A DNA stretch of 64,000 nucleotides. Origin: an uncultured Opitutales bacterium (lineage in GTDB: Bacteria; Verrucomicrobiota; Verrucomicrobiia; Opitutales; CAZQIE01). Location: positions 671-64,670 of the forward strand of contig CAZQIE010000007.1 in the NCBI GenBank assembly GCA_964593675.1. Reading direction: 5' to 3'. The notes beneath the pieces are model-generated. The model was not told the DNA's origin, searched no databases, and saw nothing but the letters and a program-made list of their open reading frames with translations. The stretch's first letter is position 1, and the number at the start of each line of letters is the position of its first letter. The translations under genes and the position numbers were made by a program. Positions 5,305-62,388 of this stretch are shown here, one piece after another.

Positions 5305-5585
5305 GGGAGACCTCGGGGAAAAAGAGGGAGGAACGAAGGCGCGCCTGCCTGGGTGGAAGGGTGCGGTGAACGCGCTCAGCCAGCATGACCCGAATCTGGC
5401 GCGGGAGCAAGCCCAAGAAACCCTCCAGTACCGAAGACAAGGATAATGTGACAGCGGTTGCAGCGCCGTTGCGGTTTTTGGTGGTCTTTTTACGCAATGT
5501 CCTCACAATGAACACGGTCTGTCTGGCACCAAAAAAGACTGTACCCCCTTGAACTTGAGAACCAGCGGTCGAAAGAATCCTGTAC

Positions 5586-6440: not shown

Positions 6441-6460
6441 TTCCCGCGCACCGCGCCGCA

Positions 6461-9570: not shown

Positions 9571-9704
9571 GCGCGAGTCCTAACGAACCCGTTTTCCGAA
9601 AATAAAAGCCGGTCCAGACACGTTCTGATTCCCCTACCCTTCACCCCCACCGATTCAGGAATCCCAGCCCCGCCCGCCCGGCGCCGGGCTGTGCCCCCCA
9701 GGCA

Positions 9705-10970: not shown

Positions 10971-10988
10971 CCCCGCGCAACCGCCGCG

Positions 10989-13307: not shown

Positions 13308-13350
13308 GCTCCGTGCGCCGCCCTCCATCGCAGCCACCTCCTTCCCTACC

Positions 13351-15912
13351 ATGCCCCTCAGCGAAAAACTGCTCACCGACCTTGAGTCCACGCTCAACAA
13401 GATCGCCACGGAGATGGTTCTGGCGCAGCCGGGAAAGGACGACGGCATGGTCCCGGTGTACGCGCTGTTGCGCGAGATCGAACCGATCGGCGTGGATGAC
13501 GCCATTGTGGGCGAATCCGTCAGCAACGTGCAGCAGGCGATGGATGCGCTGATGGACGCAGGCCAGCCTTTCGACCAGGCCACCCTGGATTACGTCACCC
13601 AGTTTGTTTCGTGGGCGGAGGCTGCAATCCGGGCCTACCGGCAAGGGCAGGAGGATGAGATCGGGCCGTTCCCGCCCATGCACGCGGGGCCGATAGCCGT
13701 GGCTTCCCACGGCGCGACGTCGGACAACGCCGTCGAAGACGCCGCAAGCCGCATCGCCACCGAGATTTCACTCGCCCAGGCGGGAACGGATCAGGGCCTC
13801 ATCCCCACTTACTCGCTCGCGGGTGACCTCGCCGACACCAGCGCCGGCAACCCTTCGCTCGCGCAGTCTGCGCAGAACCTGCGCGCGGCCCTGGGCGCGC
13901 TGCTTGATCAGGGCAAGCCCTGGGACCAGCCAACACTGGACTACGCCACCGCCTTCTCCGCCTGGGCCGAGAAGCACATGGCGAACCTGAAGGCCGGCAA
14001 GGAAGTCCCGGCATTTGCGCCAATGCCCGGCCTGGAAACAGCCCCGGCCGCGCCTGCAGCCCCGGAAGCCGCGCCCCTCGCGGCGGCAACGGACGCCGTT
14101 GAACAGGGATGCGCCCTCGACGGTGAGGTCGACGTCCTGCTGGACCTGAACCTTGGCGCCGATACCGAACTGCTTTCCGAGTTCCACTCCGAGGCGCTCG
14201 ACCACCTGGAGCAGATTGAGGCCGCCTTGCTCGTCCTCGAAAATTCCCCGCGCGACAAGGAAAGCCTCAATTCCATTTTCCGTTCGTTCCACACCATCAA
14301 AGGTGTGTCGGGGTTCCTCCACCTCGTGCCGATCCAGGCGTTGTCCCACGAAGTCGAGTCCCTCCTCGACCACGCGCGCAACGCGAAGCTGGTGCTGAAT
14401 TCGGCGATGATCACGGCCATTCTGCAAAGCCGCGACGCGATCCAGGCACTCGTACACCAGATTACCGATGCGCTTGAGAAGGGCGCGGTGCCCGACAAGA
14501 TTGTCCCCGTCTCGCACCTGATAAAGAAGGTGAAGCAGGCTGCCGCGGAAGGGCTTCAGCGCGGAGTAACGGCGGCAACCGAGACGGCGTCTGCCGCCCC
14601 GTCTGCCGCGGCCGCTGCAAAGGAAACCGCCCAGGAAGCCGCATTCTTTGGAGATTCCCGCGCAAATGGCGCCGCCGTGGAGGTCGCAGACGAACCTGCT
14701 GCCGCCGCGGAAGCCCCCGCTGCGGAGGGCGAACCGTCCGCCAAGGCCACCGGCGAGCGCTCCACCATCCGCGTCAACACGCTGAAGCTCGACAACCTCA
14801 TGGACACGGTGGGCGAGCTCGTGATCGTGCAAAGCCAGCTTGAGGAAAGCGCGCGGGAAGTGGCGACGGAGAACTCGAACCTGCAGCGCAACCTGGCCCA
14901 GCTTTCGCGCATCACCAAAGAGCTGCAGCACACCTCGATGGCCCTCCGCATGGTGCCCATCAAGCCGACCTTCCAGAAGACCAGCCGCATCGTGCGCGAC
15001 CTCGCGCGCCAGATGAAAAAGAAGGTCAACTACCACGTGGAAGGTGAGGACACCGAACTCGACCGCAACGTGGTGGAGCAGATTGGAGACCCGCTCGTTC
15101 ACATGGTGCGCAACGCCATTGACCACGGCATCGAGGACCCCACGGACCGCGTGGCCAGCGGCAAGGAGGAGACGGGGAACTTCTATCTGAAGGCCTACCA
15201 CATGGGCAGCAACATCGTGATCGAGGTCGGCGACGACGGCCGCGGCATCGACACGACCAAGGTGCTTGCCAAGGCGCGGAACAAGGGCCTTGTGCCCGAG
15301 AACCAGCAGTTCTCCCGCGAGGAGATTTACCAGTTCCTGTTCCTGCCGGGTTTCTCGACCGCGGAGAAGATCACGGAAGTTTCGGGCCGGGGCGTGGGCA
15401 TGGACGTCGTGAAGCGCAACATCGAGAAGCTGCGTGGCACGATCGAGATCGAATCGGAACTCGGCAAGGGCTCCGTATTCAAGATCAAGCTGCCGCTCAC
15501 CATGGCCATCATTGACGGCCTCGTGGTGCGCGTGGGCGCGGACAAGTTCATCCTCCCGACGACCTCGGTGAGCCTGGCGCTGCGTTGCACAAAGGAGCAG
15601 ATCACGAAGATCCAGGGGCGTGCGGAGGTGCTCGACCTGCGCGGCAAGACCGTCCCGATCATCCGCCTGCATCAGCGCTTCAACATCCCGACCGAGATCA
15701 CGAGCGTCACTGACGGCATCGTGGTGATTATCGAGAGTTTCGGGAAACTCTACGGCCTGCTCGTGGACGACATGGTCAGCAAGCAGGAAGTCGTCATCAA
15801 GTCCCTGGGGAACCTGTTCCACCAGCTCCCGGGTGTGGCGGGTGGCGCCATCCTGGGCGACGGCACGATCGCGCTGATCCTCGACCCGTCCTCGCTCGTC
15901 GCCGCACGGTAA
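13351..15912 (+). CDS. cheA: Chemotaxis histidine kinase CheA with extended duplicated N-terminus
   Basis: Hpt FRSFHTIKGVSGF, kinase core HMVRNAIDHGIE / GDDGRGID / GRGVGMDVV, C-terminal CheW-like domain IIDGLVVRVG...GDGTIALILD. Confidence 0.9.
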   Translation: MPLSEKLLTDLESTLNKIATEMVLAQPGKDDGMVPVYALLREIEPIGVDDAIVGESVSNVQQAMDALMDAGQPFDQATLDYVTQFVSWAEAAIRAYRQGQEDEIGPFPPMHAGPIAVASHGATSDNAVEDAASRIATEISLAQAGTDQGLIPTYSLAGDLADTSAGNPSLAQSAQNLRAALGALLDQGKPWDQPTLDYATAFSAWAEKHMANLKAGKEVPAFAPMPGLETAPAAPAAPEAAPLAAATDAVEQGCALDGEVDVLLDLNLGADTELLSEFHSEALDHLEQIEAALLVLENSPRDKESLNSIFRSFHTIKGVSGFLHLVPIQALSHEVESLLDHARNAKLVLNSAMITAILQSRDAIQALVHQITDALEKGAVPDKIVPVSHLIKKVKQAAAEGLQRGVTAATETASAAPSAAAAAKETAQEAAFFGDSRANGAAVEVADEPAAAAEAPAAEGEPSAKATGERSTIRVNTLKLDNLMDTVGELVIVQSQLEESAREVATENSNLQRNLAQLSRITKELQHTSMALRMVPIKPTFQKTSRIVRDLARQMKKKVNYHVEGEDTELDRNVVEQIGDPLVHMVRNAIDHGIEDPTDRVASGKEETGNFYLKAYHMGSNIVIEVGDDGRGIDTTKVLAKARNKGLVPENQQFSREEIYQFLFLPGFSTAEKITEVSGRGVGMDVVKRNIEKLRGTIEIESELGKGSVFKIKLPLTMAIIDGLVVRVGADKFILPTTSVSLALRCTKEQITKIQGRAEVLDLRGKTVPIIRLHQRFNIPTEITSVTDGIVVIIESFGKLYGLLVDDMVSKQEVVIKSLGNLFHQLPGVAGGAILGDGTIALILDPSSLVAAR
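13360..13680 (+). repeat. CheA N-terminal repeat 1 (aa 4-110)
   Basis: KIATEMVLAQPGKDDGMVPVYAL...GQPFDQATLDYVTQFVSWAE aligns by eye with repeat 2. Confidence 0.75.
13720..14025 (+). repeat. CheA N-terminal repeat 2 (aa 124-225)
   Basis: RIATEISLAQAGTDQGLIPTYSL...GKPWDQPTLDYATAFSAWAE. There is no His at an Hpt-like position. Confidence 0.75.
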
Positions 15913-24700: not shown

Positions 24701-27700
24701 CTACCAGCGGAAGTACCGCGCCGGATCGTCCCCAAGCTCCTTTTCCTCAATGAAGCCGGGGACGTAGAAGGGCGACGCTCCCTTTCCGCCAAATGGCGTG
24801 TTTTCGCCCGCAAAGGCGGCCCCCATGTTGGCGAGGATCTGGGACAGCGCCCGCGTCATGCGCCATTCCGAGTATTTCAGGTACGGGTACTTTGCGACCT
24901 TGAGCATCGGGGGCGTCATCTGAAAATAGACCGCCGTGCCTGAGCCGCAGGAGGCACGCGCCAGAATGCCCTCTCCGCTTATGTCCTTCGTCACGCCGGG
25001 AACCGCGTCGCCGGTATCTACAACGAGCGGCGCGAAAACATCAACGCGCGTGCGCAGGTCCGAATACGACAGCCCGCGTAGTTCGGGCCAATCCGCCAGC
25101 TCACGCGCCCGCGTGAAGGTGTCCGCCCGGTTTACGACAAAGCCCAGGGGAAGCCTGGCCTGGCGGCGGGCCAAAAAGAAAATGCGGCCGCCTTGCTGCA
25201 GGAAACGGGTGCATGCCTCATCAGAGACCGCTGCGTCAGGCCCAGCCACAACGAGTGTGTCGGGCGCAGGCAACGTCGTGGAGGCCTCATGCACGACGCC
25301 CATCCTGGTCAGGAGTTCCTGACCTTCAGGACCGCCCAGGTACGCGACGGCGCGCGTATCCGCCTTGGGCGCGGTTTGCGCGTATGCGATAAGGCGGTGC
25401 ACGACGAGAGCCGCCACGGGCTCGTCGCGTTCGCGACCCTCGACATCCAGTCCGCAATAGAGGACGCGGCCCGCGCCGCAAGTGGCTTCCAAAAGGGGCG
25501 AATAGGCGAGGTCGAACTCGCCCTCAAGAAGAGGCGTCCACGGGCCATAGTGGGGCTTTTCCACAACGGAACTGCTGACGCTCCCCCGATTTCCCCAGTG
25601 CCAACCGTATTTCGGCGCATGTGCGATCGGGCGCTTCAGCTCGGCATCCGCGGTGGAGGCCGGGACAAGGGTTCCCGCACCGCGCCAATCCCGGAAATCT
25701 TCGGCATCTAGCCCGGTAACAACCGGGTGCGCGGTCTGCGTGGGCACAGGCCAGAAGCGGCGCGAGACGTACCGGCTGACACGAAAGCCCTTTTCGCGCA
25801 GCCAGTCCGGGTCCTGCCCAAACACGATAACAGCAGCACCTGCGTTGGCGAAGGCCATTGCCTGCGCAACCAGCTCCCCGTTCTGTTTAAACGCGCCACG
25901 GCCGACAACCAGCACCGTACCCGGCGCAGGCTTTGTCGCGGGTCCCGGTTCGTCCACCGCGATATTGAGGTTCGCAAGCATGCGGGCGGTATCCGCGAGC
26001 GGGTCCACGATCACGACCTTAAGTCCGGGCGCGGGTTGAAGCTTTGGATAGATGCGGAGCTTGAACTCGTCCTGCAGAAGCTGGCCCCCTACCCTGCATT
26101 CCAATCTAAGCAAGGCTTCCGTCGGTTCCGTGACAGCAGGCAGCACCGCTTCGAAAGGCACGAACTTCGTCTCCGCCACAGCCAGCGTCTCGGCGAAACT
26201 GCCGCCCGCGAGCCTGTTACTCGCCGTGACAAGCGACCATGTGCCCGAGGCCTGGGCCCTTTCGCGGCTATCATTCAGGAGCACGATCTGCTTTTTGAGC
26301 GTTTCGCCCGCGTAGTAATGGTGGTCTTTCGCCGTGAATGCCGCCGGATCTCCCGGCACCGCGCCACCTGCAAGGTAGGCCAATACCGGGCCGTTGTTTT
26401 TCAAAAGCGCGACGCCCGCGGGCAGGGTAACATTTTCCGGGGACTTGAAGGGCCGCAGCAGGTCTGCCGGAAGCTCGCGGAGGTAGCCGCCACGTCGGCC
26501 CGGCTCCCACTGGGGGGCCTGTACGGTCGGAAATTTCGCGCCCCAGCCCCCCTTCCACTTGCCTTCCCAGCCATGCGCGGCCCCCCACGGGACCATTCCA
26601 CCCGAAATGCCAAATGCCCGCCAACTGCGCCAGGTTGCAGGGATGAAGATGCCCAGCATTTCCTGAAATGCGGCCTCATTCTCACCGATCACGCCGGCCC
26701 AGTCGGGCTTTTGTGGCGGGTTGCTTTGGCGGTCGGCGACAGCCGTACGGTACGCCTTGCTTTCAAGATCATAGGCGCGGCTCCCAAGATAACTCGCCGT
26801 GAACTCGGTCATAAGCGGCTCGCTTATGCCGGCGCGGTGACCGCCATTGCGGCCCCGCATCATGGTCGTGGACAAGGGCACCCCGAACTCCACAGCCATG
26901 TAGGGCATCTCGCCGTGCTGGGCCCACGCGCTCAGCCACTCCTCGCGCTCCTGAAGCGGGATGAGGTTCGGGTAGGTGTTTGCGGCATAGACGTCGCCAA
27001 CCGATGCCCCCTGGTGGACGAGGACGGGGCGGGTCGGGTCAAGCGCCTTTATCGTCGCCACAGCGGCCTCCCCGATCTTTGCCCGGAACTTCCACAACGG
27101 CGCCTCCGCGCCCTTCTTCATGCCAATGCGTAATGGGTTCTGGTCATCACCGTGCCCGAACATGTTGGGACTCGTCGCCCACATGATGATGGACGGATGA
27201 TTGCGCATACGCCGCAGTTCTGCCCGCAGGGCGGCCTCCCAGCCTTCCCTTACGCCCGGTTTCTGCCACTCGTTGACCAGATGGGCCATGGACGTGGCGT
27301 TTCCGAGCAACGGCATGCCGACGCGGTCTGCCAGGGATGCCTCAAGCTGCCGACTTGCCATGCGACCCCGCTCGGTATCGGGCTCCGGCCAGCACTCCAG
27401 GACGTTGAATCCTGCGTCGAGCGACGAGCGGAAAAGGCCCTCGATCAGCTCGGGCACGCCTCCCCCGTAACGCGTGCCCGCGAGCCAGGGCCTCATCCGG
27501 AATTCCGTTCCATTGAGAAAAACTTTGCGGCCTTCCACCCAGCACTCCCTAAACCCGAAGAGCTGCGAATACTCGTCGGCGAGCCCTTTGCCAGTGACCT
27601 TCAGCCGCAGGCGGTACAGGTTTGGCTGACCGACATCCCAAAGCTTTGGCGCGATCCAATCGAGCGACAGCCCCTTGAGAACAGTCTCCTTCCCGCCAGA

Positions 27701-28369
27701 GGCCTCCGTGACGGCCTTAAGCAGGACCCGCTTCTGTTCCACTCCCTGAAGGTCGAATACCGCGATCTCCGCGTTTACAGGAAGGTCTGCAGGCACGCCC
27801 TCAAGCTCAAGGTCCACAAAGAGTTTTTTCTGCCGCACAGAGGGCCGAATGAAGATGCCGGCGAGGCGGGAGCCCTGGGGCATGCTGGACAAGATGACGT
27901 CGCCGATAATACCACGGCTGGCGAGGCGTGCGACCCTGACCGAATTATGGCCAGCCTCCGTTCCCATGAGGTCCACGACCTCCTTTTCTTCCTGCACCGC
28001 AATGACGAGAACGAGAAGCTCGTTGGACTGGCCTATGCGCACGGCCTTCGTGATGTCCACCACCCCACCCGGCCACGCTGTGCGCCCGCACTCCTGCCCA
28101 TTAACGAAGACCACGCTGTCGGTGCTGATCCGCTGAAAGTCCAGTTCTATGGCGCGGCCCGCCCAGTCTTCTGGCACATTGAACGTGCGGCGGTACCACA
28201 CGCGGGAAACCTGCTTTCCATCCTGTCCCGGATAGGCAGCCCAGGAAGCCCCGGAACCGATGCTCAGGGGCCCGCCCGGCGCAGACCAGTTCTGATCCCA
28301 AGTGCCCGGAACGCGCACCCAGCCCCAATCGCCGTCCGGAGCCTGCGCGGACGGACCGATGGCGGGCAC
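24701..28369 (-). CDS. Glycoside hydrolase family 2-like protein (body of the gene, 1222 codons from GTG)
   Basis: GH2 sugar-binding region WYRRTFNVPEDWAGRAIELDFQRISTDSVVFVNGQECG and TIM-barrel region RNHPSIIMW. This ORF carries no signal peptide. See the fragment at 28379..28555. Confidence 0.8.
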   Translation of the reverse strand: MPAIGPSAQAPDGDWGWVRVPGTWDQNWSAPGGPLSIGSGASWAAYPGQDGKQVSRVWYRRTFNVPEDWAGRAIELDFQRISTDSVVFVNGQECGRTAWPGGVVDITKAVRIGQSNELLVLVIAVQEEKEVVDLMGTEAGHNSVRVARLASRGIIGDVILSSMPQGSRLAGIFIRPSVRQKKLFVDLELEGVPADLPVNAEIAVFDLQGVEQKRVLLKAVTEASGGKETVLKGLSLDWIAPKLWDVGQPNLYRLRLKVTGKGLADEYSQLFGFRECWVEGRKVFLNGTEFRMRPWLAGTRYGGGVPELIEGLFRSSLDAGFNVLECWPEPDTERGRMASRQLEASLADRVGMPLLGNATSMAHLVNEWQKPGVREGWEAALRAELRRMRNHPSIIMWATSPNMFGHGDDQNPLRIGMKKGAEAPLWKFRAKIGEAAVATIKALDPTRPVLVHQGASVGDVYAANTYPNLIPLQEREEWLSAWAQHGEMPYMAVEFGVPLSTTMMRGRNGGHRAGISEPLMTEFTASYLGSRAYDLESKAYRTAVADRQSNPPQKPDWAGVIGENEAAFQEMLGIFIPATWRSWRAFGISGGMVPWGAAHGWEGKWKGGWGAKFPTVQAPQWEPGRRGGYLRELPADLLRPFKSPENVTLPAGVALLKNNGPVLAYLAGGAVPGDPAAFTAKDHHYYAGETLKKQIVLLNDSRERAQASGTWSLVTASNRLAGGSFAETLAVAETKFVPFEAVLPAVTEPTEALLRLECRVGGQLLQDEFKLRIYPKLQPAPGLKVVIVDPLADTARMLANLNIAVDEPGPATKPAPGTVLVVGRGAFKQNGELVAQAMAFANAGAAVIVFGQDPDWLREKGFRVSRYVSRRFWPVPTQTAHPVVTGLDAEDFRDWRGAGTLVPASTADAELKRPIAHAPKYGWHWGNRGSVSSSVVEKPHYGPWTPLLEGEFDLAYSPLLEATCGAGRVLYCGLDVEGRERDEPVAALVVHRLIAYAQTAPKADTRAVAYLGGPEGQELLTRMGVVHEASTTLPAPDTLVVAGPDAAVSDEACTRFLQQGGRIFFLARRQARLPLGFVVNRADTFTRARELADWPELRGLSYSDLRTRVDVFAPLVVDTGDAVPGVTKDISGEGILARASCGSGTAVYFQMTPPMLKVAKYPYLKYSEWRMTRALSQILANMGAAFAGENTPFGGKGASPFYVPGFIEEKELGDDPARYFRW

Positions 28370-28375
28370 GAAATT

Positions 28376-28378
28376 CTA
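28376..28378 (-). other. In-frame TAG between the GH2 N-terminal fragment and the GH2 body
   Basis: Plus-strand cta at 28376-28378. Same frame as the ATG at 28555 and the GTG at 28369 (186 nt = 62 codons apart). Confidence 0.9.
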
Positions 28379-28555
28379 GACCCCGTTCAGGCAAATCTGA
28401 GCCCGAACGGGGCTGACAACCTCCGTCGGCTCCCGCCCCCACGTGTTCGCAACTCCGGCTGGGAGCTTGCCGTCGCGAGGCAACGCAGGTTGTGCGGCGG
28501 CAGCAACGCAGGACAGGAGCAGGAGGCAGGGAAGAAGAAGCCGACGTAGGCGCAT
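28379..28555 (-). pseudogene. Signal-peptide-bearing N-terminal fragment of the GH2 gene (59 codons)
   Basis: Translates to MRLRRLLLPCLLLLSCVAAAAQPALPRDGKLPAGVANTWGREPTEVVSPVRAQICLNGV then TAG. It is below the 60-aa cutoff of the supplied ORF track. Confidence 0.6.
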
Positions 28556-28600
28556 TTCTATCAGGGGAGAAGGGGTGAACGCGTGTGAAGGTAGCCGCGG

Positions 28601-29422
28601 CTACGGAGCCACGGGCATGACCTCGTCGTAGGTCAGTCCGAGACGCACTTCATCAAACTTCGCCACCGAGGCCGCTGGCGAAAGGTGTCGCACCTGCACG
28701 GTATCAAACGCGAGTCCGGTTGCGTCCGCCGTTGTCGACACTGTTGCCATCTTGCCGTCCGGCTGATCCCCGCCGACCGTGGGGTTGAGCCAGAGGGTCA
28801 CCGTGTCGGTGCGCGTTTCGTTTTGAACGTCGCCAAACTGCACGCGGAACAGCATGAGGGCAGGCTTTTCGGGATCGAGCGTCCCCGGGCTTCCGCTGGC
28901 GCGATGGTTGTAGCTGGGAAGACGCACGCGCGTATCTTTTGCGTCGAAGTCAAAGATGATGGCGGCACCCCCGGAGGACTGCAGGGTCACCGAACAACGT
29001 CCATTCGGGGCCTGCGGCCGCTGGACGAGGAAGCTGCCCCAGAGCGTCTTGCCGGGCTTGCCGATGAGGCCCTTGGCGTCCACCAGCGAAGCGAACTTGC
29101 CCTTCAGGTCAACGAGGCGCCACGCGCGGTCGCTGGCGCCCGTGATCACGGCTGCCCCACCGCTTGTCGCCAGCTTTTTATCACCGGAGGCGTAGGAGAG
29201 GCTCTCAGCCTGGATGTTGAAGTTGGTCGGCACGCCAGAAGTGGTGGTCCAGGCCCCTCCCCAGCCCTTGCCACCCTCACCGCCGATGAAGGCTTCGCCC
29301 GCAGGATATTCGAAAGACTCCTGCGTGTATGCGTGCACCTGCGAGGCGAAAATCGGGCCCGCCGAAACGGCGCAGAGGGTCATAAGGGATCGGACTTTGG
29401 CAGCAACGGATGTCGGTTTCAT
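28601..29422 (-). CDS. Secreted protein consisting of one copy of the ~260-aa GWGGxW...FDExRxG domain
   Basis: Signal peptide MKPTSVAAKVRSLMTLCAVSAGPIFASQVHA. ESFEYPAG...GGKGWGGAW...KTLWGSF...FDEVRLGLTYDEV aligns by eye with two modules of the giant protein. Confidence 0.7.
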   Translation of the reverse strand: MKPTSVAAKVRSLMTLCAVSAGPIFASQVHAYTQESFEYPAGEAFIGGEGGKGWGGAWTTTSGVPTNFNIQAESLSYASGDKKLATSGGAAVITGASDRAWRLVDLKGKFASLVDAKGLIGKPGKTLWGSFLVQRPQAPNGRCSVTLQSSGGAAIIFDFDAKDTRVRLPSYNHRASGSPGTLDPEKPALMLFRVQFGDVQNETRTDTVTLWLNPTVGGDQPDGKMATVSTTADATGLAFDTVQVRHLSPAASVAKFDEVRLGLTYDEVMPVAP

Positions 29423-29472
29423 GCGTCCCTTATCATCCGGTTTCCGGCCCCCGCTATCAACGTGCGCCCGCG

Positions 29473-29486
29473 CGAAACCGTTGACA
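29473..29486 (-). promoter_or_regulatory. Glycan-locus box TGTCAACGGTTTCG
   Basis: 61 nt upstream of the start at 29422. CGTTGA follows 17 nt after AAC. Confidence 0.5.
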
Positions 29487-29512
29487 ATCGGGAGACCGAG
29501 CCGTCCGCTTGC

Positions 29513-31603
29513 CTACGGCTGAGACGCCGCTTCCTTTTTCGCGTCGGCTTCGGCGGCTTTTGCACCTGCTTCCGGATGGCGGTTCGCAAGCACCTGACCG
29601 TCGTCCTCCGGATCGGGAACGGCCGACTCGAGCTTGCGGATCAACCGCACGACGTCGCGGCACGCGCCGATACCAAACCAGAAGATGTTCACCACGCAGA
29701 TAATCAGGGGAACAATGATGTTCTGGATGAGGATGTAGCGCCACCACCAGACATCCGGCCAGCGTTGGAAGCCGAGGTTCCAGATCAGGGCCACGACGAA
29801 CATGACGCTCCAGAATGTGGAGTAGAAGAACACGGAGTAGGCGAAGATCTTGTCCCACTTGGTGTAGTGCTCGTCGACCTGGAGGAAGCGGGCGAGCCAG
29901 CCACGCTTATCAAGGATCGCCGCCGCCTTGCTTTCCGTGCCATCGAGATCCTCTTTCACCGCATAGGCCCCGCGATGGAGGAGCTTGTCCATATTGTGGG
30001 GTTCCCGGCAGGTGAGGATGGAAGTGATGATGTAGACGGAACTGGCGAGACCGGCCGCGATGAGGCTCATAATCTGGCCGTTCACGGGAAACCGTCCGGC
30101 ATTGGCGGCAGCCCAGTCGCGGACCCCTTCCCAGGGCGCGTGCGCCGCGCACAGCGGCTGCAGCTCCTTCCAGAAAGTTTGCAGGCCCCACCCGATAAGG
30201 GCACAACCGGCGCCCGTGATTAATGCCGCCCAGGCAGCTTTGGTGGTGCCGCGTTTCCAGTAGAGCCCCCCGAAAAACACCACACCTGCGCCACCGAGGG
30301 AGATCGAGCCGATCAGTGCCATGAGCAACTGGAGGTAGTCCGACGGCCGGTAAATCATGCTGAAGCCAACCGTAAAGGCGCCCGCGCCAAAGACCGCCAA
30401 CCGCAGCCAGCGCACCTGACGGTCCGGCTCAATGGGCTTGTTGCGGATCGGCAGAAGGACGTCCTGAATGAAAGTTGACCCGAGGAACATGCAGTAGGCA
30501 CCCATGCCCGCGATCGACCGCAGGAGGCCGATCGCGACGAAACACCCGCGGACGCCTGTCGGCAACAGGTGGCCCAACGCACTCGGCATCTGCATCTGCG
30601 TGCGAAGTTGTGCATTGTCGATGTGGGACAGCGACGCCGCGACAGAGGCCTGCTGCTGGGCAAAATCGGGATGCCGAAGGATCGTGAAAGCACCCACCGC
30701 TACCAGTGAGGTCAGGGCAACCACGCCGAAACCGCGCCACGTGCCGAGCACCGCAGCCATGCGGCTTTCGTGAGCCGTAGCCGCCGAGGCCGAACCGTTT
30801 CCGCGGAAGTAATAGAGCGCCAGCATGAACCCGATTACAATGAACCAGCCGTTGAAATCCTGTCTTGCCGCGATGTCCAACGGGTTCACGTAAGAGCTTC
30901 CCGCCGAACCCGACAGGAGCGCCTGCTCAACCTGATCCAGGCGAACCAGCGGCAGCGTGAAGACGCCGAGGATGGCCGTGATGACCACAAGGTATAAGGC
31001 GCCGGAGATGACATACTCCAGGCTGTCAGAGATGATCACGCCGACCTGGCCGCTGACCATCGTGGAGGTGATGGCCAGAGCCGTCATGGCGACCATGACC
31101 ACGAAGATTGTGGGAACCTCCATGGAGAACAGGGCGATCTCAGCCGGCAGTCCCAGGAAATACACGAAAAACCGCGCCGTTACACCTGGCACGACACCGA
31201 AGAAAAAGAGTCCGGACGTGAAGCTCAGCACGCTGGCAAAGATGCGGAGCCCCTTGCTGTACCGCTGCTCCAGGAACTGATTCAGCGTATAAACGCGCGT
31301 CTCGCGCATGCGGAACGTCACAAACCCCGAGATCGTGATGAACAGCCAGATCAGCCCGGTGAAGGCGCCCCAAAACTGCATCGAAAAGCCGGCCCGGGAG
31401 AAGACCTCCATCATCGAGACCGTCCCCATGACGCCCGCCGTGGCCTCGCCCGTGGCGGTGGCGAGCAGGAAGCGCCCCGCTCCACGCCCGGCGGCCAGGA
31501 AGCCGGCAACGCCGCGCATGTAGCGGCGCAGGTACACCGTGAACGCCGTGGTCAATACCAGCGGGAGTAGCATGATCACCAGATCCAAAGTAGTCAGTTT
31601 CAT
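29513..31603 (-). CDS. Sodium:solute symporter (SSS) family transporter
   Basis: 696 aa and highly hydrophobic with many predicted TM helices. The N-terminus LDLVIMLLPLVLTTAFTVYLRRYMRGVAGFLAAGR is typical of SSS proteins. Confidence 0.8.
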   Translation of the reverse strand: MKLTTLDLVIMLLPLVLTTAFTVYLRRYMRGVAGFLAAGRGAGRFLLATATGEATAGVMGTVSMMEVFSRAGFSMQFWGAFTGLIWLFITISGFVTFRMRETRVYTLNQFLEQRYSKGLRIFASVLSFTSGLFFFGVVPGVTARFFVYFLGLPAEIALFSMEVPTIFVVMVAMTALAITSTMVSGQVGVIISDSLEYVISGALYLVVITAILGVFTLPLVRLDQVEQALLSGSAGSSYVNPLDIAARQDFNGWFIVIGFMLALYYFRGNGSASAATAHESRMAAVLGTWRGFGVVALTSLVAVGAFTILRHPDFAQQQASVAASLSHIDNAQLRTQMQMPSALGHLLPTGVRGCFVAIGLLRSIAGMGAYCMFLGSTFIQDVLLPIRNKPIEPDRQVRWLRLAVFGAGAFTVGFSMIYRPSDYLQLLMALIGSISLGGAGVVFFGGLYWKRGTTKAAWAALITGAGCALIGWGLQTFWKELQPLCAAHAPWEGVRDWAAANAGRFPVNGQIMSLIAAGLASSVYIITSILTCREPHNMDKLLHRGAYAVKEDLDGTESKAAAILDKRGWLARFLQVDEHYTKWDKIFAYSVFFYSTFWSVMFVVALIWNLGFQRWPDVWWWRYILIQNIIVPLIICVVNIFWFGIGACRDVVRLIRKLESAVPDPEDDGQVLANRHPEAGAKAAEADAKKEAASQP

Positions 31604-31740
31604 GGATGCTGAGCCTCGATAGGGAAATAGGGTTTGACCGTCTTTGGTGCCTCAACGGGGTCCTGGCGTTTGAAGCAGTGGGATTTCAGCCGTCTAGTTC
31701 ATTCTGCACAGGGCAGGCCTCCCGGAAATGCTGCAACAGG

Positions 31741-31753
31741 CGAAACCGTTGAT
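31741..31753 (-). promoter_or_regulatory. Glycan-locus box ATCAACGGTTTCG
   Basis: 147 nt upstream of the start at 31603. On the coding strand it is preceded by a small hairpin GGGCTaaaAGCCC plus TTTT (31774-31790). Confidence 0.5.
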
Positions 31754-31949
31754 TCAAAAAGCCTCTCAGGGAAAAGGGCTTTTAGCCCGTGCGTTGGCCG
31801 CAAGTTGGGAGGCGCCTCTCATTGGGAGGGCTCCGCCTTCCACGGCGGTCGAAGGCGGCCATGGCAGGCTTGCGCCAGGGGGGTAAGGACCTTGTGCCAG
31901 CGCTTAAAAGGTGGCTGGCACGGCACGGGTATTTTCATGCGATGCTCCG

Positions 31950-33911
31950 TCATGCCTCGGCTAAAATCAGGAAGGCACAGGTTTGGGGTTTGAGAGAGCA
32001 TTCGCAGGTATACGTTGTTCCCGTGAGCGCGTCCTTCGCTGGCGAGGTCAGCGGGAACGAGACGGCCTCGGTGCCCCAGTTCGCGACAGCGAGGGCGCGG
32101 CCGCGGTCTGGGCTGTCCATGGGGATAACCGTGGTGTTGGGCAGCGCTGGCAGCCTCGGGACGCCGCTGCGCTGGGCAACGCCTGCGAAAAGCGCGACAT
32201 TGGCTTCGGGAGGTAGATGCGTCCCGATCAAGTAAAGGGTGCCCTTGCCCACCGGGACCGCTATGCCCCAGGCCTCCCCAGACTGGCGGCCGGTTTTATA
32301 GCACCCCAAGACTTCTATGCCCGGGCCTTCAGCGAAGGAAACAGTCTCGCCCGCCGGCACGTCCAGTGCACGGCCCTGGTATTCGATCGTCGTCGCACCG
32401 GCCCATTCCCAATGCCGGGTGGAAAACCCGAAACGCTCCTCTAGCTTACCGAGAAGCCCGTTCGTGTGCGCCGTATTCTCGGGCGTCCTTGTACCGCTAC
32501 ACGGGCCGAGCACCGCGGCGCCCCCGCGCTCCAGCCACGGCCCGAGGCGCGCCACGAAAGCGTCTTCCACACAGGTAAGGTACGGGACGATGAGCATGGC
32601 GTAGCGGGAGAAATCGGCCTCCGCCCAGATGACGTCCCTCCAGAGGCCCGCATCGCCCAGCGCGCGGTGCTGCCGGCTCATTGAGCCGAAGTATTCAAAT
32701 TTTGGAGACGGCGGGGTGTCTTCATGCAGGTAGCGGCTGAAGCGGTCCGACCGTACGAGCGCGACAGGAGCGGGTGCCGGCGAGAACGTCCCCAGAAGCG
32801 GCTCGAGAGCCCGGTGCAGCGCCGACAGCTGGGGAAGCTCAAGTCCGCCACGTGTGGGCGCCCCGTGGGCGTAGAGGAAGGAAGGGTGCGGGATCTCCAT
32901 GCCCGCGCGTTGTTGACGCCAGAGCCAATACAGGACGGCCTGACTCCCGGAGCACCACATGAGGAACGCCTGCACAGCCAGATAACCCGCGGGATGGTTG
33001 CCCCAGAGGTTGAAATCGGGGCTGGTCTCCATGATCCAGAATTTCCGGCCGGGCTTGATTGCCCGCAGCCAATCCAAATCCCACTGGAGCACCCAGGACT
33101 CGGCGGCGGAATGGTAAAAGTCGGACGAAGCGAAGTCCAGGGGCGCAAAGAGAGACGGGTTATCCGCCGAGCTCACCGTGTTTGTGGTGATGGGCGCTGC
33201 GCTGTGCTCCCGGACTGCGTCGGCTTGCAGGTGGATCAGTTCGTTTGCCTGGTCGGCCTGGAAACGCAGGTAGGACGCGCGCAGGGGCGGGCTCTGCCAA
33301 CCTTCAAGCACAGGGACTTCCGCGAAAGCGCCATAGGTCATGCTCCAAACGGAAGTGCCCCAGGCCTCATTGAGGGCGTCGATTGAGCCATAGTGCTGTG
33401 CGAGCCACTTCGGCCACGCCGCACGGCAGGCTTCGCAGATGCACGGCCGCAGCTTCGGCTCATTATCCACCTGCCACGCCACGAGTCCGGGGTGGCGCCC
33501 AAACTCCCGCGCCATCCAGCGCGCGATGCGCACGGCGTGTTGCCGGAAGATGGGGTTGCCGGGACACGGGTGCTGTCGGCCCCCGTGGAGGGCACGTTCT
33601 CCTTTCGCGTTAACCCAGCCTATCTCGGGGTGGCGCACGGTAAGCCAGCGGGGCGGCGTCGCCGTGGGCGTGCCCAGGACGGTCGAAAGTCCCTCCGCGT
33701 GAAGCTCATCCATCACGGCCCGCATCCAGTCCGCCTTCAGCTCGTTTTCCTTCGGCTCGAAAGTGCTCCAGGCAAACTCGCCCATACGGACAACGTTCAA
33801 GCCTGCATCGCGGATGCGGCGGATGTCTTCGCGAACGACGTCGCGGCTCCACGCTTCAGGATACAGCGCGGCGCCCAGCCAGAGCCGGTTCTTGTGAGCT
33901 TGTTCTGCCAT
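31950..33911 (-). CDS. Beta-galactosidase, glycoside hydrolase family 42
   Basis: LGAALYPEAWSRDVVREDIRRIRDAGLNVVRMGEFAWSTFEP, WQVDNEP, 653 aa, no signal peptide. Confidence 0.85.
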   Translation of the reverse strand: MAEQAHKNRLWLGAALYPEAWSRDVVREDIRRIRDAGLNVVRMGEFAWSTFEPKENELKADWMRAVMDELHAEGLSTVLGTPTATPPRWLTVRHPEIGWVNAKGERALHGGRQHPCPGNPIFRQHAVRIARWMAREFGRHPGLVAWQVDNEPKLRPCICEACRAAWPKWLAQHYGSIDALNEAWGTSVWSMTYGAFAEVPVLEGWQSPPLRASYLRFQADQANELIHLQADAVREHSAAPITTNTVSSADNPSLFAPLDFASSDFYHSAAESWVLQWDLDWLRAIKPGRKFWIMETSPDFNLWGNHPAGYLAVQAFLMWCSGSQAVLYWLWRQQRAGMEIPHPSFLYAHGAPTRGGLELPQLSALHRALEPLLGTFSPAPAPVALVRSDRFSRYLHEDTPPSPKFEYFGSMSRQHRALGDAGLWRDVIWAEADFSRYAMLIVPYLTCVEDAFVARLGPWLERGGAAVLGPCSGTRTPENTAHTNGLLGKLEERFGFSTRHWEWAGATTIEYQGRALDVPAGETVSFAEGPGIEVLGCYKTGRQSGEAWGIAVPVGKGTLYLIGTHLPPEANVALFAGVAQRSGVPRLPALPNTTVIPMDSPDRGRALAVANWGTEAVSFPLTSPAKDALTGTTYTCECSLKPQTCAFLILAEA

Positions 33912-33960
33912 GGAAGAGGTGCGGGGGTGAATTCAGGAAGCGTGGCGCGGCTAAGGAAGA

Positions 33961-36765
33961 TCAACGCGGCCGGGGTCCTTGGCGGGCATCCGCCGGCACA
34001 CGGCCCTGGAGGACTTCGGCTACGGATGCGGGGGTTGCGGTCGTTTCGAAGTAGAGCAGATCGGCAGAGGCCTCACAGGGCCCGGAAATCCTGTTTCCCC
34101 AAAGATCGCGGGCCACCCAACCTCTGGGCACCTTCGCGAGCTTCCATGCCGAAAAGGACGGAGCGGTCGTCACGACGGCAACGGTGCGGCCCTTTCCTGC
34201 GAAGACCCACGCGTAGACGCCCTCGGCCAGCGAAACCTGGCGGTCGAACTTCAGGTCCTCAAGAAGCCACTGCATTGCCGCATCGGCCACTGCAGTGGGA
34301 TGCACGGCGCCCCCGTTGCCGCGCGCTTCCCGAAAACCTGCAACCGTCTGGCTGCCGTCGAAGAGATCGAACCCATGCATCGCGTAGGCGAAATACTTCT
34401 CGCCGCCAGCTGCCAGCGTCGAGAGGCGGTAGCGCACCTCTTCGCGCGAAGCCATGCGCCAGTCGTCCTTGTTCTCGTAGGGAAGCGTGTGCTTCCAGAG
34501 GCCGTCCCGCGTCGAATCGCGGTTTGAGCCGCCCTCCGTCATCCAGACGAGCATGCCGAGGGTCCCGTCTGCCCGCGCGGCGCGCACTGGCCCGGACACC
34601 AAAGGCAGGCCATTCCTGAAAACGGCATCGTCGGGGTAGCCGCTCGGCGAGGACACATACGAGTGGTATGAGAACCCCGAAGGCGCGGGCGCCTTGAGCC
34701 CGTGTGCGTCGACAAGCGCCTTCACCCAAGCCACGCCTTCGTGGTCGCCGGTCGCATTGAAGCCGAATACCGGTTTGCCAGGAACGGTCTCGCCTGCGAC
34801 GCGCACGGCGCGCTGGGTGAGGTCCGCGTAAGCGGCGGCGACTGTGGGCAAGGGGTCGCGCACGCCACGTGGAAACTGCTTTAGCTGCGCGGGGTCCCAG
34901 CGGCGCCAGAAGTTTGGCAGCCACGGCTCGTTCCATACTTCCCAGGCCGCGACCTGCCCAGCGTAGCGCGTGGTGATCGTCCTCACGTAGTTTTCCCAGT
35001 CAGGCAGGTGCTCAGGCTTTGGCTGAAGGTAAGCGTGATCCCAGAACGCCGTGCCGGGGCTGCCATTGGCCCAACCGGGCGAAGTGGACAACATCCCGAG
35101 GACAAGAAGGTTTTGGTCTCTGTACTTTTTGAGAAGCTCGTCGCGCCAGACCCACTGGCCGGCCTTGGGCTCCACATGGTACCAGCTCGTGATCGTGTTG
35201 CCCGTGTCGTGCAGACGCACCCAATTGTGGCCTGTGGCCTTGGCCAGCACGAGGCTGCGGTTGAGGTGCCCCACGTGTACGCCGAAAGGTGACTCCGGAG
35301 CGTCCTTGCCCCAATAACGCGGGCGCGGCAGCCTCGCGACGACAGTCTCGGCAATCGGGCTTATGACCTTGCCGGCTGCATCCACGACCGAGGCCTCAAC
35401 GCGAAACAGGCCTGCTGAGCGTGAAGGATCGACGAGCCCGCCGAAGTCCAGCGCCAAGGTCTCCAGCTTCGTCCCGGCCTGAAGCCCACGCAGCGGCGCC
35501 TTGCGCGTGTTGCCGTAAAGGTCGGTCGCCGAAATCGCGAGGCGGCAACCGGCAGGCAAAGGGCCGCACACGGCGAGGTTCAGGGCTGCCGGCTCATCCA
35601 AGAACTGGATGCCCGCCGCCGACGCATCACTCCGCGGAATCGCCAGCGCGACTTCAGCCTCCGCGGACGGTGCCCAGGCAGAAGGCGCCTCGCCCACTTC
35701 AAGCTGAAGGGCGTCCAGCCAGACGGGCCCGGCCGTCTCCAGTGCGAAAAGGTGAACCGGTCCGCGCAACTGCGGCAGGAACGGCAACACCACCCGTTGC
35801 CACTGATCGCTTGCAGAGAAGCCCGCCCGCCCGAGAATGTTTGCGCGATTACGGGGGTCCCCGCCCTTCAACACCAGAAGCTCGCCCGGGGCTTTGGCCT
35901 TCACGTACAGGCTCAAGACGTGATTCGAAAACGTCCATTGGACGGGCAAGGGCGCGGAGTAGAAGGCGGCCTTTTCATTTGGCGCAAACTTCAGGGCAGG
36001 CAAACCGCTTGGCCCACTGGTCTCAGCAGGGTCAGCGGCGAACTCAGCCTCCGCGTCGTCGAGATTATACGCCAACACCCAGGCCGGAGGTGCGCCCAAT
36101 GGGAAGCGCGAGCTCGTCGCCCGGTTGCCGGGCTTGCCACCATCCGGGAACGCCGCTTTCAGGTCCGCCACAATCTCGTCGCGGCTGAAACGCTCGATTC
36201 TGATCGACTGGATCTCGACGGTGCCGGCACCCCCGCCGGGCAACTGGAACTGGAAGTACGGCTTGGCCTGCTCGCCCACGGCCGGCGCGATGAACTCATA
36301 GACAAATGTGTTCCATTCGGCGTACAGGTTAACGTCCGTGCGCCACGGTGCCTTCTGCTTGGGCACGATGATGATTGCGTGGAAATTGCGGCTGTCCGGC
36401 GTACGTGCGCGAATCGAAACGCGGTAGAGGCAAAGGTCCGGTTGCGTCAGGCCCGGGTCAAAACGGATCTGCGCGTGGCCTTTGTCGCCGCGCCGGATGC
36501 GGAGGAATTTCACCCCCGCTTCCTCTTCCACCGTGTAGGCCACTTCGACTTCCTTGTTGAAAGCAGAGTCGTCCTTCCAGCCCTTCGGAAGCACGCCCTG
36601 GATTGACTTGCCGGGCGCGGAAACCCGATTAAGCGGCTCGAGGTTTTCCGCGAAAACGGTGTCCACGATGACCTCCGCACGCGCAGGCGTTCTCCCGGCC
36701 GCAAGCAGCACGCCGAGCGCAAACAGCGGGAGCAGGACGAGATAATAAGCCTGACGAGTTTTCAT
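33961..36765 (-). CDS. Secreted glycoside hydrolase, clan GH-A TIM barrel with N-terminal beta-sandwich modules
   Basis: ATG at 36765 gives the signal peptide MKTRQAYYLVLLPLFALGVLLAAGRTPARA. The C-terminal part has HNWVRLHD and WEVWNEPW (NEP acid/base motif). The exact family is not assignable by eye. Confidence 0.6.
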   Translation of the reverse strand: MKTRQAYYLVLLPLFALGVLLAAGRTPARAEVIVDTVFAENLEPLNRVSAPGKSIQGVLPKGWKDDSAFNKEVEVAYTVEEEAGVKFLRIRRGDKGHAQIRFDPGLTQPDLCLYRVSIRARTPDSRNFHAIIIVPKQKAPWRTDVNLYAEWNTFVYEFIAPAVGEQAKPYFQFQLPGGGAGTVEIQSIRIERFSRDEIVADLKAAFPDGGKPGNRATSSRFPLGAPPAWVLAYNLDDAEAEFAADPAETSGPSGLPALKFAPNEKAAFYSAPLPVQWTFSNHVLSLYVKAKAPGELLVLKGGDPRNRANILGRAGFSASDQWQRVVLPFLPQLRGPVHLFALETAGPVWLDALQLEVGEAPSAWAPSAEAEVALAIPRSDASAAGIQFLDEPAALNLAVCGPLPAGCRLAISATDLYGNTRKAPLRGLQAGTKLETLALDFGGLVDPSRSAGLFRVEASVVDAAGKVISPIAETVVARLPRPRYWGKDAPESPFGVHVGHLNRSLVLAKATGHNWVRLHDTGNTITSWYHVEPKAGQWVWRDELLKKYRDQNLLVLGMLSTSPGWANGSPGTAFWDHAYLQPKPEHLPDWENYVRTITTRYAGQVAAWEVWNEPWLPNFWRRWDPAQLKQFPRGVRDPLPTVAAAYADLTQRAVRVAGETVPGKPVFGFNATGDHEGVAWVKALVDAHGLKAPAPSGFSYHSYVSSPSGYPDDAVFRNGLPLVSGPVRAARADGTLGMLVWMTEGGSNRDSTRDGLWKHTLPYENKDDWRMASREEVRYRLSTLAAGGEKYFAYAMHGFDLFDGSQTVAGFREARGNGGAVHPTAVADAAMQWLLEDLKFDRQVSLAEGVYAWVFAGKGRTVAVVTTAPSFSAWKLAKVPRGWVARDLWGNRISGPCEASADLLYFETTATPASVAEVLQGRVPADARQGPRPR

Positions 36766-36891
36766 GGGTAGACGGGGTTGCTCGCGATTGCGGACAAAAC
36801 CGGGCTTGCGGGGTGGGCCGGTTGTCCAGCGCGGGACTATCTCCGCTTCTGATCTTATATTCTTAGGGACAAACGGGAACGTTCGCCACGT

Positions 36892-36904
36892 TGAAACCGT
36901 TGAC
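36892..36904 (-). promoter_or_regulatory. Glycan-locus box GTCAACGGTTTCA
   Basis: 136 nt upstream of the start at 36765. Two more AACG copies follow at 9-nt spacing, and CGTTCC lies 17 nt after AAC. Confidence 0.5.
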
Positions 36905-37055
36905 CCTGGCTGAACCCTACGCACGGTCAAAAAGAAGAGAGCACATTCCGGTGGTCGCCCTCCCCACTTTTGTTTGCTGCCCTGCTCCACGATTTCAGCT
37001 ACAGCCCGGTTGTGGCAGCCAGTGCCCTTTTGAGAAATTACCCACGCGCGCGGAC

Positions 37056-37069
37056 GTGAACGCTTTTTT
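37056..37069 (+). promoter_or_regulatory. Glycan-locus box variant GTGAACGCTTTTTT
   Basis: 94 nt upstream of ATG 37153. This is the weakest match in the set. Confidence 0.35.
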
Positions 37070-37152
37070 GTGGGCGCCGCCCAACCGGCCCGGCCACCGT
37101 GCACCCAATGCTCGCCGCAGAGCGTTCCTCATCCCCGTTTCGCACAAAGATC

Positions 37153-38763: not shown

Positions 38764-38987
38764 TGGGGCGTAGCGGGAGGACGTTCTGTCCGCCGCGATA
38801 CCTGCCACCAAGTTTGCCCGGCTGCACGCCATGCCGCCGGTTCGGCCAAAATTGGCATCTGGCTTCACGTGGAGGTTCTCCGGGCGCCCGGAGAAACCCC
38901 TCAAGCCCGCGTGTAACCGAGCCTTCGCGCGGGCGCTCGTTGCGCACCTACGGTCGGGGCCGCCTCGAGGTTGTGGTGCGTACAAAA

Positions 38988-39026
38988 GGAATCCGGCAGC
39001 CCTTTCAAGCTGCCGGATTCTTCATT
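38988..39026. terminator. Bidirectional rho-independent terminator between convergent GH13 and PEP-CTERM genes
   Basis: GGAATCCGGCAGC-cctttcaa-GCTGCCGGATTC, with a T-rich tail on the plus strand and an A-run (T-run on the minus strand) on the other side. Confidence 0.75.
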
Positions 39027-39050: not shown

Positions 39051-39884
39051 TTAGGCCGAAAGGCGACGACGGAGCGCGGCGGCCAGTAGCGCCACAACGC
39101 CAAGCCCGGCTGCGTAGGTGGAGGGCTCAGGAACCGGGCTGCCCAGATTCTGGCCGCTCACGTCGACGTAGATGTTGTCGATCCAGAACGGGTCCTGCCC
39201 CGCGCTTGCGCCACCACTGCGCGCAGCGAAGTACCGGAGCGTGCCGACCGCTGAGTCCGTAGCGAACGCAACGTTCGTGGCAAGCGCCGTTTGGGTGGCG
39301 TAGGCGCCGGAGCCGCCCTGGATGTAGACGTCGTAAGTGCCGGCGGTGTTGTTCAGCACGAACCATACGCTGTAGAGCGTGCTCGCGACGATCGTGTTGT
39401 TGGCAATAATGGTGCCCGTATAGCCCGCCCCCGACCGGTCGGAGAGGGAGTAGTTCGGGCCACCGCCAGAGATGTAAAGCTGGGCGCCACGAACCGTGGA
39501 AGCGGAGTTGAAATTGAAGGCGTTAGACAGGTCAGAGATACCGAACGACAGCGTGGGCGACTGGCTGCCCGTATCGTCGATTTGGAACTGCATGAACAGT
39601 GTGCCTGTGGTGCTGGTCGCGACACCTTGCGCGGCACCCATGTCCAGGCGGCTGCGCATGTTCGCCGCAGTCCACTGAACGGCCTTGCCGCTTCCGAAAG
39701 TGGCAACCGTCGGGTCCGCACCGACATTTCCGGTCCACGCCGTGCCGACGGCGGAGGTCTGGCCGTTGACGGCGCCAAGCGTGTCACCATCGAAATTATC
39801 TACCAGCACGAAGGCAGCACTGGCGGCCTGGGTGGTAGCGAGCAGGGATACCAGTGCGATGAACTTGTTGATGGGCGTATTCAT
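39051..39884 (-). CDS. PEP-CTERM sorting-domain protein with lectin/LamG-like N-terminal domain (paralogue 1)
   Basis: Signal peptide MNTPINKFIALVSLLATTQAASA. C-terminus VPEPSTYAAGLGVVALLAAALRRRLSA (PEP motif, TM helix, basic tail). Confidence 0.85.
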   Translation of the reverse strand: MNTPINKFIALVSLLATTQAASAAFVLVDNFDGDTLGAVNGQTSAVGTAWTGNVGADPTVATFGSGKAVQWTAANMRSRLDMGAAQGVATSTTGTLFMQFQIDDTGSQSPTLSFGISDLSNAFNFNSASTVRGAQLYISGGGPNYSLSDRSGAGYTGTIIANNTIVASTLYSVWFVLNNTAGTYDVYIQGGSGAYATQTALATNVAFATDSAVGTLRYFAARSGGASAGQDPFWIDNIYVDVSGQNLGSPVPEPSTYAAGLGVVALLAAALRRRLSA

Positions 39885-39959
39885 TTTTTTGAAAAGGGGG
39901 ATTTGGAAATCGACGTTATTATCCGCGAAACCGCGGTCCGTAGAAATTCATGGCGTTGT

Positions 39960-51994: not shown

Positions 51995-52103
51995 GTTTGG
52001 GGGTAGAAACTGGGTAGAAGGCGCCGAAGGGCAGACGAACCCACACCTCCGGTCGCTAATGGATTATTTCACCACCTGCCCGCTTTGGAACGACATCGTC
52101 TGT

Positions 52104-62385: not shown

Positions 62386-62388
62386 CCT

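Follow-up and report, generated by a model that had tools for sequence, protein, structure and literature searches.

Large GH2-like 'beta-galactosidase' proteins are found in the Verrucomicrobiota, Planctomycetota, Cyanobacteria and Acidobacteriota (for example, P0011, P0002, P0030 and P0037; 1260-1770 amino acids). They share a domain order that comprises a leader, the domain Glyco_hydro_2_N (GH2_N), the GH2 immunoglobulin-like domain, a TIM barrel and a long C-terminal region ending in …YYRW. A gene for a protein of this type, 35-45% identical to these relatives over 94-100% of its length, is located on the minus strand of a 64-kb stretch of contig CAZQIE010000007.1 from an uncultured Opitutales bacterium (64,000 nucleotides; hereafter, the window). 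Unlike its relatives, the gene has TAG in place of the codon for an invariant Trp residue (Trp60), and it represents an isolated lineage with a best identity of 43%.

Bacterial pseudogenes and null alleles of the 'internal stop' class, which result from a single nonsense mutation, are also close to this case. Such genes contain one in-frame stop that differs from the ancestral sense codon by a single substitution, and both flanks are homologous to and colinear with intact relatives. The present gene has the same features, and its change would be a G:C>A:T transition. In no essential respect does it depart from these pseudogenes. It is unusually 'fresh', in that it has no second lesion, and it differs from flagged 'internal stop' genes in its deposited annotation, which carries no flag and presents the 1222-residue remainder as a normal protein (P0001).

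The 5' part of the gene is an open reading frame (ORF) of 59 codons, MRLRRLLLPCLLLLSCVAAAAQPALPRDGKLPAGVANTWGREPTEVVSPVRAQICLNGV, that is opened by ATG 28555 and closed by TAG 28378-28376. Two in-frame sense codons, AAT TTC (28375-28370), separate this stop from GTG 28369, the start of an ORF of 1222 codons that runs to TAG 24703-24701 and is identical to the NCBI protein P0001. The reconstructed gene totals 1284 sense-equivalent codons plus a stop. The signal-peptide-like leader, MRLRRLLLPCLLLLSCVAAAAQ, has a basic n-region, a hydrophobic core and a c-region containing AAA/AQ or the lipobox-like LLSC. The 1222-codon ORF has neither this leader nor the first ~60 positions of the GH2_N profile. 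The original prediction, that an in-frame TAG splits a leader fragment from a GH2 ORF, is correct in every coordinate and sequence.

A homologue search with the joined sequence, in which the stop was masked as X, finds 146 homologues. The best of these apart from P0001 is 43% identical, and most span 94-100% of the query including the upstream fragment. The position of the stop is occupied by Trp in all 110 homologues that cover it (local alignments of the first 140 residues), within the motif (I/V)-x-L-(N/D)-G-x-W-x-F-x-P-A, which corresponds to the L-N-G-x-W-x-F of GH2 N-terminal domains. W60 is also an invariant column in a 38-sequence MAFFT alignment (A1), and the equivalent codon is TGG in the three homologous loci that were read as DNA (L001-L003). 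The Trp assumed for the query aligns with that of a solved GH2 structure, 6hpd (FNVDWKF versus LNGVWNF). Just 5' of the stop, residues 37-58 are identical to P0011 at 17 of 22 positions (TWGREP.E.VSPVR..ICLNG), which is well over the average for the whole protein.

The 59-codon fragment is colinear with the N termini of more than 100 homologues. An upstream leader is present in all homologues inspected; several have obvious Sec or Tat signals, and P0043 matches PF10518. When Trp is restored, the GH2_N match spans the junction (residues 56-196, profile positions 4-145, 42.0 bits), whereas the 1222-residue ORF alone matches only positions 63-145 with 36.6 bits. Because Trp occupies the stop position in every covering homologue, the fragment is colinear with their N termini and the domain match grows across the junction, these comparisons support the view that the two ORFs are one gene interrupted by one amber codon, as originally predicted. 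A colinear fragment together with a stop that falls on an invariant residue places the junction, as a gene interruption, far beyond chance. The original prediction also named an observation that would speak against it, namely orthologues starting at the equivalent of 28369, and none of the 110 homologues covering the site begins there. Because the invariant residue is Trp, which has only one codon, a single transition would be sufficient, and we infer that the lesion is TGG>TAG by G>A (C>T at plus-strand base 28377).

No other stop or frameshift occurs in the 1284 codons. Of the 270 columns with at least 90% conservation across 101 homologues, the protein retains 236 (87%), and equally isolated members of the family (at most 46% identical to anything else) retain 82-90% of them, so there is no sign of relaxed constraint. 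Secondary decay of the type expected in an old pseudogene is thus not seen in the gene, and the lesion, if real, would be recent. The surroundings are also well preserved. Full-length domain matches, with no frameshifts or truncated domains, are seen in all of the ~30 other genes that were checked in the window (coding sequence of ~55 kb). These genes include cobW, gdh, cheR/B/A, response regulators, a purB-like gene, acetyl-CoA hydrolase, queG and two GH95-like genes, as well as GH42, alpha-amylase family, heparinase-like, trehalase-like, GH3, LacI and URO-D-like genes. These intact neighbors show that the contig is not riddled with errors in general and that the genome is not undergoing broad decay.

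We favor, with a probability of roughly 0.55, the reading that the TAG is a real and very recent nonsense allele of an ordinary exported GH2-like glycosidase gene. A G>A transition would have turned the invariant Trp codon TGG of L-N-G-x-W-x-F into TAG, and the absence of any other decay in the gene would make the event a very recent one. G:C>A:T transitions are the commonest spontaneous change in bacteria. Translation from ATG 28555 would stop after 59 residues and yield a signal peptide and a stub. Re-initiation at GTG 28369, 7 nucleotides (two codons) past the TAG, would at best give low-level translation of the remaining 1222 codons. The resulting protein would have no export signal, and it would be missing the first strand or strands of the sugar-binding domain, including the invariant Trp. 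Because of these losses, and because no homologue covering the site starts at this position, the allele is most likely null and its truncated product non-functional. The event might represent a loss of function at the level of a strain or population, or else the first step toward a pseudogene.

Re-initiation might also have a more constructive outcome, in which the mutation is real and the 1222-residue protein serves as a useful cytoplasmic enzyme. The 7-nucleotide gap between TAG and GTG is a geometry compatible with the established coupling of termination and re-initiation in bacteria, and the long ORF is intact and was accepted by the depositor's gene caller as P0001. However, the re-initiated protein would lack positions 1-62 of the GH2_N profile, including the invariant Trp and the L-N-G strand. 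The leaders of the inspected homologues and the absence of any covering homologue that starts here also argue against such an enzyme. Moreover, no Shine-Dalgarno-like GGAG or GAGG occurs within 20 nucleotides of the GTG, where the only G-run is locked in the stem of a hairpin. We consider this possibility unlikely.

Several observations weigh against a nonsense allele. No second copy of the sequence confirms the base: a junction pattern in which the middle base of the stop is left free has no match in genome contigs, and a pattern degenerate at third codon positions has none in metagenome contigs. P0001 is a singleton cluster, two neighboring peptides that were tried are also not in the protein collection, and the nearest protein to the query is only 43% identical. 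The stop is located at the foot of the strongest hairpin of the window, which raises the odds of an artefact. Finally, a total absence of secondary decay is exactly what an artefact would show.

The hairpin was described originally as a perfect 8-bp inverted repeat, CCCCGTTC/GAACGGGG, at 28381-28412 and ending 2 nucleotides 5' of the TAG, and it is present as claimed. Perfect 8-bp repeats with loops of 3-20 nucleotides are not more frequent in the window than expected by chance (33, compared with 29 +/- 7.5 in shuffled sequences). The full structure, GCCCCGUUCGGGC-UCAGAUUU-GCCUGAACGGGGU, consists of 13 base pairs, including two G-U pairs, and an 8-nucleotide loop. It has a folding energy of -27.3 kcal/mol, encodes S-P-V-R-A-Q-I-C-L-N-G-V, and is the most stable 36-nucleotide hairpin on either strand of the window. 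A 101-nucleotide fold has a z score of -2.6; in it, the U and G of the UAG pair as an extension of the stem and the A bulges out. Restoring TGG makes the stem contiguous (-30.2 kcal/mol).

The hairpin is not conserved. Equivalent regions of L001-L003 reach only -12 to -16 kcal/mol, although two of them encode the same SPVR…CLNG peptide, and its absence from homologous loci excludes a conserved element. An intrinsic terminator is likewise rejected, as no T-run is present. A template-switch origin of the mutation within a quasi-palindrome is also rejected, because the change weakens the extended stem (-27.3 compared with -30.2 kcal/mol). The hairpin is therefore left without a functional reading; being 5' of the TAG, it would already have been unwound by a ribosome terminating there. 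One of the four best hairpins would abut a given site with a probability of ~3e-3, and this adjacency at most suggests a local hotspot of error or mutation, which explains it better than a function does.

A base-call or assembly error in the consensus is the alternative that benefits from these observations. The gene would then be intact (TGG) in the organism and would encode an ordinary 1284-residue secreted GH2-like enzyme, and the A at minus-strand position 28377 would be an error, to which the strong inverted repeat next to it, or coverage that was low or biased to one strand, might have contributed. Only one base is affected, in a gene otherwise free of damage; the most stable hairpin of the window lies immediately next to the stop; and the genome was seen only once in the public data searched, which fits a rare and possibly low-coverage metagenome-assembled genome (MAG). 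The proximity of the hairpin and the complete lack of secondary decay together shift weight toward an artefact.

Inverted repeats are a documented trigger of sequence-specific miscalls in Illumina data, and the miscalled bases are usually copies of the one or two that precede them (Nakamura et al. 2011, PMC3141275). Such miscalls can mimic single-nucleotide polymorphisms if one read direction dominates (PMC3141275). The present case resembles these errors in that a lone suspicious base adjoins a strong 13-bp inverted repeat and the genome has a high GC content. However, the described errors form read-direction-specific runs of low-quality miscalls (PMC3141275), which would rarely reach a consensus, whereas here there is one clean consensus substitution, in data whose platform and coverage are not known. 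The miscall pattern fits weakly on the plus strand, where a T occurs two bases before the site, and does not fit on the minus strand.

No other error signature is found in the ~55 kb of coding sequence. We estimate that, gene for gene, real nonsense alleles occur more often than consensus substitutions that happen to create a stop. A consensus error thus remains a tentative explanation that we take seriously and do not prefer, and we infer that the base is probably real in the DNA of the organism. Only sequencing reads can separate a nonsense mutation from a sequencing error.

The use of TAG elsewhere in the window bears on whether the codon might be decoded. With coding frames chosen by third-position GC content (GC3), TAG ends ~10 of ~32 coding ORFs, including the gene immediately upstream (28603-28601). 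The GH2-like gene itself ends in …PARYFRW-TAG, and the corresponding end …Y-x-(R/N)-W is found in 101 of 102 sequences of the family (…YYRW). TAG is therefore a normal stop in the source organism, and because it ends the same protein at a family-conserved C terminus, it is not a sense codon 1224 codons earlier. Reassignment of TAG is rejected on this basis. A second candidate for a TAG-interrupted gene, at 61360-63123 on the minus strand, is also rejected: the URO-D match begins at the start of the downstream ORF, to which the upstream ORF is unrelated, so these are two separate genes.

Four consecutive stop-to-stop segments in the same frame, each separated by a single TAG, occupy 24701-31651 of the minus strand. 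Genes genuinely end at the first two segment boundaries, since the gene that follows each of them has a start and a leader of its own, and the run as a whole looks like a coincidence.

Programmed decoding of the UAG has been a further candidate, since the original prediction raised regulated read-through as a control of export. In such a scheme, read-through, pyrrolysine-type recoding, adenosine-to-inosine (A-to-I) editing or bypass, with the hairpin as signal, would set the amount of export-competent enzyme. Known systems with pyrrolysine and its PYLIS element, leaky-stop read-through, and the amber/W site of hepatitis delta virus likewise involve an in-frame UAG that, if decoded, would lengthen the protein, and in the viral site a UAG within a helix is converted to a Trp codon. 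An unusually strong hairpin adjoins the present stop, the predicted fold shows the A of the UAG as a lone bulge at the foot of the helix, and editing of UAG to UIG, which is read as UGG, would restore exactly the ancestral Trp. Thus, the UAG might be real and decoded as Trp at a regulated low frequency, either by a near-cognate or suppressor tRNA or by editing of the bulged A.

The differences from these systems are more telling. The stop is not conserved, as all 110 covering homologues have Trp, and the same codon terminates both this gene and ~10 others. No tRNA gene is found in the 64-kb window. Known read-through, selenocysteine and pyrrolysine signals lie 3' of the stop; here the hairpin is 5' of it, where the ribosome would unwind it, and homologues lack it. 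The 83 nucleotides from the stop codon onward fold no better than shuffled sequences (z score of +0.77; 151 of 200 shuffles are as good). The bacterial mRNA-editing enzyme known to act on adenosine, TadA, needs a UACG loop motif, and the sequence at the present site is CUAGA, outside any loop; bacteria are not known to have an ADAR. Bypass would be needless in a protein that is colinear with its homologues. Regulated read-through therefore finds no support, given an unconserved stop, a codon that serves as a terminator here, an upstream and unconserved hairpin, and no 3' structure. We regard programmed decoding in general as highly improbable, and decoding of this UAG as Trp at a regulated frequency seems just as remote. 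If regulated decoding were nonetheless true, the amount of export-competent GH2-like enzyme would be set post-transcriptionally, which would be a new kind of control for a secreted carbohydrate-active enzyme (CAZyme) of bacteria. On the favored reading, that of a recent nonsense allele, the locus is a standard internal-stop gene in a populous GH2-like family, with nothing new in kind and no new decoding mechanism.

The assignment of the long ORF to the GH2 type, also part of the original prediction, is borne out by three Pfam domains that exceed their cut-offs (28, 23 and 21 bits for Glyco_hydro_2_N, Glyco_hydro_2 and Glyco_hydro_2_C). In the 1222-residue ORF, the sugar-binding jelly-roll domain Glyco_hydro_2_N scores 36.6 bits over profile positions 63-145 only. 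The immunoglobulin-like beta-sandwich Glyco_hydro_2 scores 43.2 bits over positions 3-109 of 109, and the TIM-barrel catalytic domain Glyco_hydro_2_C scores 25.9 bits over positions 97-212 of 302 only. GH2 enzymes in the PDB are matched at 1e-13 to 1e-8.

The catalytic residues are less typical. In GH2 enzymes such as LacZ, the catalytic acid/base is the Glu directly after a conserved Asn, in an N-E motif that follows NHPS..W. In a motif alignment of the query and 101 homologues, this canonical Glu after the conserved Asn is not found, and the query has NHPSIIMWATSPN-M-F. N464 is invariant in the 101 homologues, and the next residue is F (62 of them) or else R, L or Y. The lack of the acid/base Glu thus appears to be a property of the whole subfamily and not a defect of this copy. 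E556 (codon 26888-26890), within a V-E-F-G-T-P motif, is present in the query and invariant in all 101 homologues, and is the putative nucleophile by motif. The subfamily may use another acid/base residue, or another chemistry, than the classical GH2 enzymes. Because the catalytic assignment comes from motif alignment only, we term the protein GH2-like and not a proven GH2 hydrolase.

Coordinates of the gene, its parts, the hairpins and neighboring features are collected in Table 1.

Table 1. Features of the GH2-like locus and of the surrounding window.
Feature	Coordinates	Strand	Basis
Reconstructed full gene, predicted exported GH2-like glycosidase, 1284 codons + stop, one internal TAG	24701..28555	-	Colinear with homologues of 1259-1766 amino acids over 94-100% of length; best identity 43%
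Signal-peptide-like leader	28490..28555	-	Read from sequence, judged by eye
59-codon N-terminal fragment: leader and first strand(s) of GH2 sugar-binding domain through L-N-G-V	28379..28555	-	Homology to P0011; Pfam GH2_N after W restored
Hairpin inside coding sequence, immediately 5' of TAG	28379..28414	-	Folding
In-frame TAG (plus-strand CTA) at invariant-Trp position	28376..28378	-	Homologue alignments
Codons AAT TTC (Asn-Phe), x-F of W-x-F motif, between TAG and annotated GTG	28370..28375	-	F62 at least 90% conserved among 101 homologues
1222-codon ORF as deposited (P0001), GTG 28369 to TAG 24703-24701	24701..28369	-	ORF map; Pfam; identity to P0001
Acid/base motif region NHPS..W....N-(F/M/R/L)-F, residues 452-466 of joined protein	27160-27200	-	Motif alignment
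Same-frame stop-to-stop segment, transporter-like	29513-31651	-	ORF map
Same-frame stop-to-stop segment, 273-residue secreted protein	28601-29512	-	ORF map
Same-frame stop-to-stop segment, GH2 leader fragment	28376-28600	-	ORF map
Same-frame stop-to-stop segment, GH2 body	24701-28375	-	ORF map
273-residue protein, signal-peptide-like N terminus, directly upstream of GH2	28601-29422	-	Coding-type GC3
SSF-type transporter, weak match	29513-31651	-	Pfam
GH42 beta-galactosidase	31950-33932	-	Pfam
1055-residue protein, upstream of GH42	33961-37128	-	Coding-type GC3
Hairpin runner-up, -26.2 kcal/mol	14573-14608	-	Inside cheA, antisense
Hairpin runner-up, -25.7 kcal/mol, textbook terminator	38987-39022	-	12-bp stem then CTTTTGT, downstream of gene
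Hairpin runner-up, -24.2 kcal/mol	41123-41158	-	Inside heparinase II/III-like gene, sense
2801-codon giant ORF, coding-type GC3	43658-52063	-	

The GH2-like gene is the last of a same-strand run that begins with the 1055-residue protein and continues with the GH42 gene, the SSF-type transporter and the 273-residue secreted protein. Neither the 1055-residue nor the 273-residue protein has a Pfam match. Judging from strand and spacing, the genes in 28601..33932 of the minus strand and the GH2-like gene probably form an operon. The run is a galactoside-utilization cluster, and because the GH2-like gene is its last member, the premature stop would have no polar effect on the other genes. Elsewhere in the window, a chemotaxis cluster (cheR, cheB, cheA and hybrid kinases; 5559-15912) is found beside a dense set of glycoside hydrolases (GH2, GH42, two GH95-like, GH3, GH13, trehalase-like and heparinase-like), and a PEP-CTERM protein is also encoded. 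The terminator among the hairpin runners-up consists of GAATCCGGCAGC-TTGAAAGG-GCTGCCGGATTC followed by CTTTTGT, ~30 nucleotides past the TAA of the gene at 39051-39947, and is an example of the form that real terminators take in the source genome.

Among 185,579 species-representative genomes, nothing is more than 69% identical to the glutamate dehydrogenase encoded in the window, and the best matches of this enzyme are overwhelmingly MAGs of Verrucomicrobiota. Given this best identity, the source is a poorly sampled verrucomicrobial lineage, with no close orthologue for a finer comparison. Six loci (L025, L037, L059, L060, L064 and L083) come from 'MAG TPA_asm' records titled Bifidobacteriaceae, Bifidobacterium, Klebsiella or Chromatiaceae. 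Their glutamate dehydrogenases are 62-65% identical to that of the window and fall among the Verrucomicrobiota matches, and these taxonomic labels look doubtful.

No open biological question hinges on this lesion. The case illustrates how a gene caller can silently rescue an interrupted gene: the deposited protein (1222 amino acids from GTG 28369) is a truncated call, for which the next start codon was taken. The annotation should either be flagged as an internal-stop pseudogene or, if reads show TGG, be corrected to an exported enzyme of 1284 residues. This correction is relevant to inventories of CAZymes and of the secretome in a lineage of Verrucomicrobiota that is otherwise unsampled. A real mutation would document that a galactoside-utilization cluster has lost one extracellular glycosidase.

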